DNA of 26,132 nt from a virus (lineage: Duplodnaviria > Heunggongvirae > Uroviricota > Caudoviricetes): IMG/VR virus record IMGVR_UViG_2529292735_000025; one strand, 5' to 3'. Numbering within the stretch: the first letter of the stretch is position 1; every line of letters begins with the position of its first letter. The notes beneath the pieces are model-generated. The model ran no database searches and was not told the DNA's origin. It was given only the letters and a program-made list of their open reading frames with translations. Positions 6,987 through 8,944 of this stretch are shown here, one piece after another. The position numbers and the translations under genes are program-made.

Positions 6987-7988
6987 TTAGATTCCCTCAA
7001 CTATTTTCATAATTCTAGCTGCATCATTCTTTTTGTCTTGATATTCAGCATAGGCTTGTTTTGATTGCACGATTAGGTCATTATATGTCAATATTTTTCC
7101 ATTGATAGAAAGTAATTGCATATTTATAAAGTGTTGGTTCTCTTGTAAATATCCAGAGCCAACCAGGAATATTACTTCTATATGCGGTATATTTCCACCT
7201 GGGCAATTTTTAGGGTTATTGGAGAACCATTGTGTCGTTGCCTGTACATATTTATTACCTTGTGCGACTAGGTTCATTATATCTGGGTGCACTTTAGGTC
7301 GTTTCATCTCAATAATTACATGCTTGCCAGAAACGGTTTTGAAAGCGATATCAATACGAGCACCGCTAGCAGCATCAGGGTTTATCTGTTTTAGTTCCTT
7401 GGTCAATGTTTGCTCCATAACAGATGTGCCTGTGACTCTTTCCCATGAAGGATCCAATAACCATAAATGATCATATAAATACATTTGTACAGCTCTTTCA
7501 AGCTGATTTTCATCAGTTATTTTTTGGAATTTTTCAATTACTTTAAGGCGTTGCGAAGTAATTTCATAAAACATGCTTGCTTCAATGTCATTGACAGATG
7601 CAAATACATCTTTAAAATTTTCTGATTGAAGGTTGCTTATTTTATCTAATGCATCAAGGTTGTCTTGAATTCTAAGTCTTTCAAAGGCTAATACCGTATT
7701 TTTTAATACGGTTTTTCTTGCTGCTTTTTGTTCTTCCTCATTACCAGAAAAACGGAATGTGTTTACTCGTCCAATTAACTTTTCGGCACTTTCTCTCTCA
7801 TGTTTTTTGAGAGAATTCAGCCATTCACTTACTATTGGAGTATTGCTTTTAACTTCATTTACTCCTTTTTCGCGTCTCCATTTATCCCAATCTTTATCGA
7901 TTAGTTGTAGCGTTCTTTCCAGAAAACCTTTAAGTACAGGGTATCTTGGATCATTCTGTTGTAGTTTTTGACGAGAAGATGTTGCCAT
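6987..7988 (-). CDS. C-terminal segment of a GHKL-ATPase/nuclease protein; contains a PD-(D/E)xK-like motif (RIDIAF ... VIIEMKR)
   Basis: 333-aa ORF from ATG 7988, but the same frame stays open with no stop and no ATG/GTG/TTG for a further 155 codons upstream to 8453, overlapping the end of the ATPase ORF. Most likely the downstream part of one about 650-aa gene. Confidence 0.7.
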   Translation of the reverse strand: MATSSRQKLQQNDPRYPVLKGFLERTLQLIDKDWDKWRREKGVNEVKSNTPIVSEWLNSLKKHERESAEKLIGRVNTFRFSGNEEEQKAARKTVLKNTVLAFERLRIQDNLDALDKISNLQSENFKDVFASVNDIEASMFYEITSQRLKVIEKFQKITDENQLERAVQMYLYDHLWLLDPSWERVTGTSVMEQTLTKELKQINPDAASGARIDIAFKTVSGKHVIIEMKRPKVHPDIMNLVAQGNKYVQATTQWFSNNPKNCPGGNIPHIEVIFLVGSGYLQENQHFINMQLLSINGKILTYNDLIVQSKQAYAEYQDKKNDAARIMKIVEGI

Positions 7989-8404
7989 ATCAGGCTTTTC
8001 GTTATCATCTAGAAAATCGGCGACTATTTCACCGACCAGATAATTGGTGAATACTTTAGCACTTCCAAATTCTAATAATATGTCCTCCTCAAAAACACGT
8101 CCGTGAGAGATTACAGTAATGCTGTTGTTAGATATTTCAGGGTCTTTCTTTAACTGTGATGGCTTAACTACACTGCCAATGTACCCACTAACTTTTACAT
8201 CTTTTCCTTCAAAGGTAATAGTATTTGGTAATATGTTTTTTTGTGTGATGTTTGTGCAGGATTTTATCCTTTCAGGGTCGGATTCGCCAAATTCCCAAAT
8301 GAACTCGAGATCTGAAAGGAAATCTCTATCTGCCGGTGTAATATCGGTCCCATTAATTTTAACTGTAAAGTTATGGTTGGGGCCAATAATGCTAAATCGA
8401 CGAG

Positions 8405-8944
8405 CTATTCGCTTTCTGAGGTAAGTTTGAGTCCTATCAATGGCTTTTTTAGTTCAAATAATTTAATTGTAGTGCCGTAAGCAAGATTTTCGGGTATTTC
8501 AAGGGAGTCAGCAATATAGTTTTTTGATTCTTTGATACTTTGCTGTAAATCTTTGACATCTACCTCAAAGGCCTGAGGCTGTTCCCCCTTTTTGTACGAA
8601 TAAACTTGGATTTTATTGGCAAGTGAAAACATGGCAAGCTTACCAATACCTTTTCTGCCCATAACTTGACGTTTTAGATGATCGCTTTTGGCTCTTCCAT
8701 GTTCCCTGCGAGCATAACCGACTTTTAGGAACTTATTAATAATGTCATCTTTAGACATGCCATGACCATCATCTTTAATGATGACCTCTCCTTTCTCAAC
8801 ATCAAGTGTAATTTCTACATTTTGAGCATCTGCATCCCATGCATTTGATATAATCTCAGTTAGTACCGCGGGAGTATTGGAATAGAGACTCATCCCTAGG
8901 TGATTTAGCACATTCAAATCAATTTTAATTTCGAAATCTGACAT
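8405..8944 (-). CDS. GHKL-superfamily ATPase domain (N-terminal segment of a frameshifted larger gene)
   Basis: Bergerat-fold motifs in order: N-box EIISNAWDA, G1 IKDDGHGM, G2 GRKGIGKLA, G3 GTTIKL. AAGGAA Shine-Dalgarno 8 nt before ATG 8944. Stops at TAG 8405-8407 just after an A6 run. Confidence 0.8.
   Translation of the reverse strand: MSDFEIKIDLNVLNHLGMSLYSNTPAVLTEIISNAWDADAQNVEITLDVEKGEVIIKDDGHGMSKDDIINKFLKVGYARREHGRAKSDHLKRQVMGRKGIGKLAMFSLANKIQVYSYKKGEQPQAFEVDVKDLQQSIKESKNYIADSLEIPENLAYGTTIKLFELKKPLIGLKLTSESE

Follow-up and report, generated by a model that had tools for sequence, protein, structure and literature searches.

The DNA considered here is the IMG/VR virus record IMGVR_UViG_2529292735_000025 (Caudoviricetes), hereafter the window: one stretch of 26,132 nucleotides (nt), taken at its full length. 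Between positions 8944 and 6987, its minus strand carries two open reading frames (ORFs)—one for a GHKL-type ATPase and one of 333 amino acids (aa)—and the locus raises the question of whether these are two genes or the parts of one and, in the latter case, what the split signifies. With a probability of about 96%, the region 8944–6987 is a single 652-codon gene for a restriction endonuclease (REase) of the BbrUII/HgiDII family and the paraMORC3 type, split by a one-base contraction. This gene family is already known, and the locus is not a new gene arrangement.

The 5′ fragment of the gene spans 8944–8405 and encodes 179 aa according to the ORF list and its translation. Its product consists of native residues 1–167, which cover the GHKL domain through motif IV (G157–T158), and of 12 out-of-frame residues, followed by a TAG at 8407–8405. 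Gene callers present the remainder as the 333-aa ORF of the same list, running from the ATG at 7988 to 6987 and beginning at Met320. The frame of this ORF is open further upstream as far as 8453, with a TGA at 8456–8454 just before, and the extension comprises 155 codons with no stop, ATG, GTG, or TTG. At the composition of this strand (36% G+C and 7.5% stop triplets), the chance probability of such a stop-free run is about 6 × 10−6, and the open frame is therefore not accidental. Translation of this −1 frame yields the 3′ part of the gene at 8453–6987: native residues 168–652, encoding the end of the GHKL domain, a predicted β-rich transducer (S5-like), a helical region, and the predicted nuclease domain. 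The two frames overlap by 49 nt.

The lesion falls within this overlap. The coding strand reads A6 (plus-strand T6 at 8445–8450) where relatives read A7, as judged by sequence reading and by comparison with these relatives. The missing A belongs to an A7 run at codons 166–168 of the intact gene, past motif IV of the GHKL domain and ahead of the last helix of that domain. Insertion of one A restores an uninterrupted 652-aa protein (...TIKLFELKKAIDRTQTYLRKRIARRFSIIGPNHNF...), whereas A5 in place of A6 leads to a stop three codons on. The first-pass annotation, made from the letters alone, had already described this layout, and each of its elements holds: the TAG at 8405–8407, as judged by the ORF list and the reverse-strand sequence; the startless frame, open for 155 codons to 8453 and overlapping the ATPase end by about 16 codons; the A6 run in the overlap; and the continuous protein with A7 as opposed to the immediate stop with A5. 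The record as written would give rise to the 179-residue ATPase fragment only, with the transducer, helical, and nuclease parts out of frame and the neighboring methyltransferase intact. Met320, the sole internal start, has no evident ribosome-binding site. A second A7 run of the gene, at 8236–8242 on the coding strand, is unbroken here and reads A8 in three other assemblies.

The relatives of the locus decide between one gene and two. APEC O2-211 is identical to the window across 2201 bases save A7 for A6 and features a single 1959-nt coding sequence (CDS) for a protein of 652 aa, WP_001279022.1. The corresponding 2.2-kb region is present in 30 of 5,426 complete Escherichia coli genomes at an identity of at least 99.8%. 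A 121-base query centered on the run returns a 122-base match—one extra base—in 30/30 of these genomes, and in the eight genome records opened, the region is a single 1959-nt CDS for WP_001279022.1, which recent annotations call "BbrUII/HgiDII family restriction enzyme" and earlier ones "ATP-binding protein". A pattern allowing A6, A7, or A8 found A7 alone in both of the JGI metagenome contigs and in all six IMG/VR viral contigs. Together, the 30 complete genomes, the two metagenome contigs, and the six viral contigs form a set of 38 unbiased loci, all of which (38/38) carry A7 and an uninterrupted single gene. More distant proteins have the same architecture: the best 120 homologues listed (44–92% identity) are nearly all single chains of 646–704 aa with 96–100% query coverage, and the three shorter entries among them are partial. 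The hosts among the matches listed are Pantoea, Serratia, Vibrio, Proteus, Aeromonas, Shewanella, Pasteurellaceae, and others. In the homologue alignment, the junction sits within the conserved stretch GT.I.L..L.K.I.RT..YLRKR.ARRFS.

Two separate genes, one for an ATPase subunit and one for a nuclease subunit, are the other way to read the locus, and callers do report ORFs of 179 and 333 aa. However, the 155 codons of open frame above the 333-aa ORF contain no start codon, the break interrupts a conserved motif, and both the relatives and the distant homologues are single chains—three findings that rule the two-gene reading out and leave it with practically no probability. No naturally two-gene homologue with a start for the second part occurs in the 38 unbiased loci or among the 120 homologues listed. 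Nor is the 333-aa ORF a gene in its own right; it matches positions 339–594 of a type II REase profile. That the ATPase and the 333-aa ORF form one gene of about 650 codons had been proposed in the first-pass annotation, and the proposal is borne out by the single 652-aa CDS of APEC O2-211 and by the single-chain homologues; the comparison with homologous loci that it had named as a check identifies A7 as the common state. The one-gene reading is secure, and no evidence was found to contradict it.

The repaired protein matches the NCBIfam model NF050001 ("BbrUII/HgiDII family restriction enzyme", an equivalog with a curated cut-off of 550 bits) with 751.4 bits, aligning residues 4–651 with profile positions 1–658 of 659. 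The type II REase model of PADLOC (REase_II) matches it at 3e-91, and the Pfam domain HATPase_c_3 is found at residues 26–149 (E = 2e-25). Residues of the ATP-binding site are invariant in the homologue alignment: E30, N34, D58, G60, G62, G96, G99, G101, G157, and T158. An AlphaFold model was computed from an alignment of 39 homologues with the S367I cluster representative P0003 as the modelled sequence, and it features a mean predicted local distance difference test score (pLDDT) of 79 and a predicted template modelling score (pTM) of 0.63. The modelled domains are, in order, the GHKL domain (residues ∼1–185), a β-rich domain (∼190–315), a long helical region (∼334–495), and an α/β domain (∼504–620). 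In Foldseek, the GHKL and β-rich parts align to the N-terminal and middle domains of Hsp90, TRAP1, and GRP94 at E = 1e-13 over ∼400–450 columns; this is a whole-chain search and not a domain-level assignment of an S5 fold, and its matches are solely to the Hsp90-type GHKL and middle domains.

The C-terminal part is a predicted PD-(D/E)xK nuclease. Its catalytic motif is formed by D532 (7352–7350), E546 (7310–7308), and K548 (7304–7302) on the minus strand, which are invariant in the 39 homologues; so is E511, which completes an E-D-ExK pattern. In several homologues, precomputed matches to PF14082 cover the nuclease region. A combination of a GHKL domain, an S5 domain, and a nuclease of the restriction-endonuclease (RE) fold with E-D-ExK residues, linked to cytosine methylases, has been described as paraMORC3 (Iyer, Abhiman and Aravind 2008, PMC2292703), and its ATPase was hypothesized to loop DNA between recognition and cleavage sites (PMC2292703). 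An N-terminal GHKL domain has also been noted in the type II enzyme R.HgiDII (PMC2441816). An intact copy in phage PhiR44_1 is annotated as ParaMORC3 and adjoins Dcm, whereas the main text of Rousset et al. 2022 does not mention the system by name.

Two points weigh against the assignment to a BbrUII/HgiDII-type restriction enzyme. The nuclease fold is predicted from the invariant motifs, the PF14082 matches of homologues, and profile analysis in the literature, rather than from a fold search of the domain itself. That the enzyme recognizes GTCGAC, like HgiDII and BbrUII, would be an assumption taken from the family name only; the three GTCGAC sites in the window are uninformative on specificity either way.

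The partner of the restriction gene is a C5-cytosine DNA methyltransferase of 349 aa at 5897–6946 on the plus strand. It is intact, identical to WP_000598783.1, and shows no difference from APEC O2-211 over its interval. It matches PF00145 (E = 1.3e-55), TIGR00675 (129.7 bits), and the PADLOC model MTase_II (E = 2e-88). The two genes are convergent, and together they are the restriction–modification cassette of a P2-like prophage. Between them, sequence reading reveals a G/C-stemmed hairpin at 6951–6985, probably a bidirectional terminator, whose C and G run lengths vary in otherwise near-identical relatives (+C at 6959/6964 and −G at 6981). The hairpin is not cleanly picked up by a terminator scan, and a promoter and terminator scan of 5600–9450 was no more informative than shuffled sequence. 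The cassette has a G+C content of 38%, compared with 51% for the window, and occupies a variable locus flanked by replication gene A and portal gene Q; in phage P2, this is the position of the tin/old variable locus.

Upstream of the restriction gene, the ∼430 bp between its start and the portal gene (8945–9374) contain small ORFs only, of 41 and 46 aa, and two terminator-like hairpins on the minus strand at 9354–9369 and 9169–9188; the equivalent region of phage PhiR44_1 carries hypothetical genes of 126 nt and 162 nt. Near the end of the window, an insertion sequence (IS) of the IS3 family (1331 bp, 24283–25613) interrupts the P2 tail-fibre assembly gene, whose start is at 24174. The element encodes an rve transposase ORF of 301 aa (24697–25602) and is bordered by a 5-bp target duplication at 24278–24282 and 25614–25618. 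A second IS (25682–26132) follows ∼68 bp further on with an HTH_Tnp_1 ORF from 25764. These insertions make the prophage defective whether or not the frameshifts are real.

Whether the base is truly missing is a separate matter, on which we infer an answer, with a slight lean toward an artefact; the unity of the gene, the single-base contraction as its lesion, the family and domain order, and the intact partner are, in contrast, shown. The window corresponds to the draft contig AIHM01000067.1 of E. coli DEC14C, with 100% identity over 9 kb and a match of the tail end as well. At slightly better than even odds, DEC14C truly has A7 and an intact restriction gene, the draft assembly having undercalled the homopolymer. 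Over 24.3 kb, the window differs from APEC O2-211 by two substitutions and four one-base contractions of A/T runs: T7 to T6 at 8445, T4 to T3 at 9229, A7 to A6 at 19366, and T7 to T6 at 24258. Three of the seven length-7 runs (all those in the reference stretch) are thus contracted in the window, each contraction breaking a gene, and the other two genes broken in this way are intact in 6/6 sampled contigs with an identical tail-fibre protein, a sample that did not include DEC14B.

As for these further contractions themselves, the one at 19366 shifts the frame near codon 16 of a gene for a 261-aa hypothetical protein, apparently a membrane protein. This gene (18627–19411, minus strand) sits between the P2 tail-completion and baseplate genes, and an exact look-up of the broken 252-aa hypothetical product (18627–19385) returned nothing on record. 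In the tail-fibre assembly gene, the contraction at 24258 shifts the frame near codon 29, and the IS insertion follows 24 bases later; the broken 52-aa product is on record for the DEC14C contig alone. The contraction at 9229 is intergenic, between the restriction gene and the portal gene, and the run is T4 in DEC14B and in all other relatives.

The sister assembly DEC14B (AIHL01000077.1) also speaks for undercalling. Over 8.5 kb, it differs from DEC14C by three homopolymer insertions or deletions (indels) and nothing else. Two of its T6 runs are privately contracted to T5, at the window equivalents 7525 and 10400: the former breaks the restriction gene a second time, and the latter falls in the first codons of the essential portal gene, which is called at 322 aa rather than 344. 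Taken together, these contractions have the typical appearance of pyrosequencing undercalls. The DEC collection was presumably sequenced by 454 pyrosequencing. Indirect support for an artefact comes from the same sequencing centre, which relied on 454 Titanium and the Celera assembler for E. coli genomes of the same period (PMC3491183).

Against an artefact stands the distribution of A6 itself. DEC14B and DEC14C have it in common, each of their other contractions being confined to one of the two, and it occurs also in Logan/ENA assemblies of other runs: ERR10498699, ERR6996036/ERZ28608682, and ERZ28607712. The exact 179-aa product is likewise called on contigs of ERR10498699, SRR099102, ERR6996036/ERZ28608682, and ERZ28607712. 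Two of these assemblies (L010 and L011) carry A6 on the haplotype of PCN033 and 98208 (5480G, 8328G, and 9057G), two strains that themselves have A7, and contain no further indel in 3.7–4.3 kb; the A6 of the window is on the haplotype of APEC O2-211. Because A6 occurs on two haplotypes and the former assemblies lack other indels, the allele very probably exists in nature, with at least two origins.

For DEC14C, a genuine A7-to-A6 deletion in the DEC14 lineage is given somewhat less than an even chance. It would leave a null or strongly hypomorphic nuclease beside an active, effectively orphan methyltransferase in a decaying prophage. In its favor are the two haplotypes, each with an A7 counterpart that is otherwise identical, the status of A6 as the sole contraction common to DEC14B and DEC14C, the real damage that two IS elements have done to the tail-fibre assembly gene of the prophage in the window, and at least five further, independent lesions in the restriction gene. 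These lesions comprise A8 in the same run at 8445–8450 (L019), an A-to-T change inside the run that turns codon 167 into TAA (L022), A8 in the second A7 run at 8236–8242 (L016–L018), a C-to-T nonsense mutation at 8399 (L021), and an 8-bp duplication at the equivalent of 8537 (L020, Logan SRR6072691). In the last of these contigs, the methyltransferase is also broken by a +A frameshift at the equivalent of 6310, and both genes of the cassette are thus broken. A genuine deletion is at odds with the homopolymer noise of the assembly and with the rarity of A6, which is found in 0/38 unbiased loci, the intact protein being encoded on at least 1000 contigs. It is also at odds with a survey that found defence pseudogenes to be rare in P2-like prophages (PMC13586616).

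The frequency of broken copies has to be read with the way they were collected in mind. The 333-aa ORF is called on 21 contigs with various upstream lesions, and contigs retrieved via this product are a sample biased toward broken genes. At least 1000 contigs encode the intact protein, compared with a few dozen that carry a broken copy, and inactivation is therefore recurrent but rare. This does not fit the first-pass annotation in one respect: loss of the toxic half of such a pair is not its usual fate here. A survey of P2-like prophages found few defence pseudogenes as well (PMC13586616).

A third explanation would make the run functional: an evolved switch, in which A6 is expressed by programmed −1 frameshifting at A_AAA_AAG or by transcriptional slippage. 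In the 0 frame, the A6 allele reads CTA AAA AAG and hence holds an in-phase A_AAA_AAG heptamer—exactly the dnaX phase—at which a −1 slip yields ...LKKAID..., the exact wild-type sequence. In addition, A6, A7, and A8 all occur in nature. On the other side, the heptamer is present in none of the 38 unbiased loci, which are all A7 in a single frame, and stimulatory elements are lacking around it: the downstream 84 nt fold at −8.0 kcal/mol with z = +0.8 (160/200 shuffles are at least as stable), the downstream 44 nt have a minimum free energy of −2.9 kcal/mol and no stimulatory structure, and inspection of the 30 nt upstream of the heptamer revealed no GGAG-like sequence that could serve as a Shine–Dalgarno-like stimulator. 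The run of seven bases is also shorter than typical contingency tracts. Basal slippage is low: the best V_VVA_AAG heptamers slip at ∼0.3% when stimulators are absent, with a maximum of 3.7% in the most favorable 3′ context (PMC4066793). A programmed frameshift was rejected on the folding of the downstream 44 and 84 nt and on A7 in every unbiased locus, and the evolved switch as a whole is most improbable.

From A6, the full-length enzyme could arise only through a rare −1 slip on CTA AAA AAG, expected at ∼0.3% and a few percent at most. With neither stimulators nor conservation, any such leak would therefore be small and not programmed, and since the heptamer exists in a rare mutant allele only, it would be accidental. 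The first-pass annotation had ranked programmed slippage as remote, which the lack of stimulators and of conservation bears out, and had overlooked the in-phase A_AAA_AAG of the A6 allele, which makes slight leakiness possible. It had otherwise left a recent pseudogene or a homopolymer sequencing error, and exactly these two options remain after the comparison: the lesion is an ordinary inactivating mutation or a sequencing error in a known restriction gene.

Phase variation of a looser kind was considered as well. Restriction–modification genes with homopolymer tracts are phase variable in Haemophilus, Helicobacter, and Neisseria. The A7 run could act as a low-frequency mutational switch, whose recurrent A6 "off" alleles would be leaky and supply ∼0.3% to a few percent of wild-type enzyme by −1 frameshifting. 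This is very unlikely; A6 and A8 were found solely in contigs retrieved by broken products, and the unbiased samples are all A7. If it were true, attenuated restriction beside full methylation might be favored in new hosts or whenever restriction is costly.

The main consequence is one for annotation: the two ORFs are best merged into a single BbrUII/HgiDII-family restriction gene marked as frameshifted, and not listed as an ATPase and a protein of unknown function. Should the deletion be real, DEC14C would retain the methyltransferase but lack the nuclease, and this defence would be gone from its P2-like prophage. In either case, mutation or sequencing error has struck the A run repeatedly. 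Only a small fraction of the copies is broken, in agreement with the rarity of defence pseudogenes in P2-like prophages (PMC13586616).

The A6 allele resembles the dnaX-type −1 site of E. coli in having the same heptamer in the same phase and the same shift-prone lysyl-tRNA, but here the upstream Shine–Dalgarno-like stimulator and the downstream stem–loop are absent. It shares with phase-variable restriction–modification genes a coding homopolymer with +1 and −1 variants that turn the gene off; however, the tract has seven bases, 38/38 unbiased loci are "on", and other lesions of the gene are ordinary nonsense mutations or duplications. Compared with the BbrUII/HgiDII family (NF050001, WP_001279022.1), the repaired protein shows the very sequence of WP_001279022.1, next to the same convergent C5-methyltransferase and at the same position in the prophage; the difference is the interruption of the gene, with A6 instead of A7. 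With paraMORC3 it shares a GHKL domain with intact ATP-binding motifs, a predicted C-terminal nuclease of the RE fold with D...ExK, and the linkage to a cytosine methylase, and the β-rich domain that follows the GHKL domain in the model is a putative transducer or S5-like domain. In its intact form, the protein does not differ from this type.

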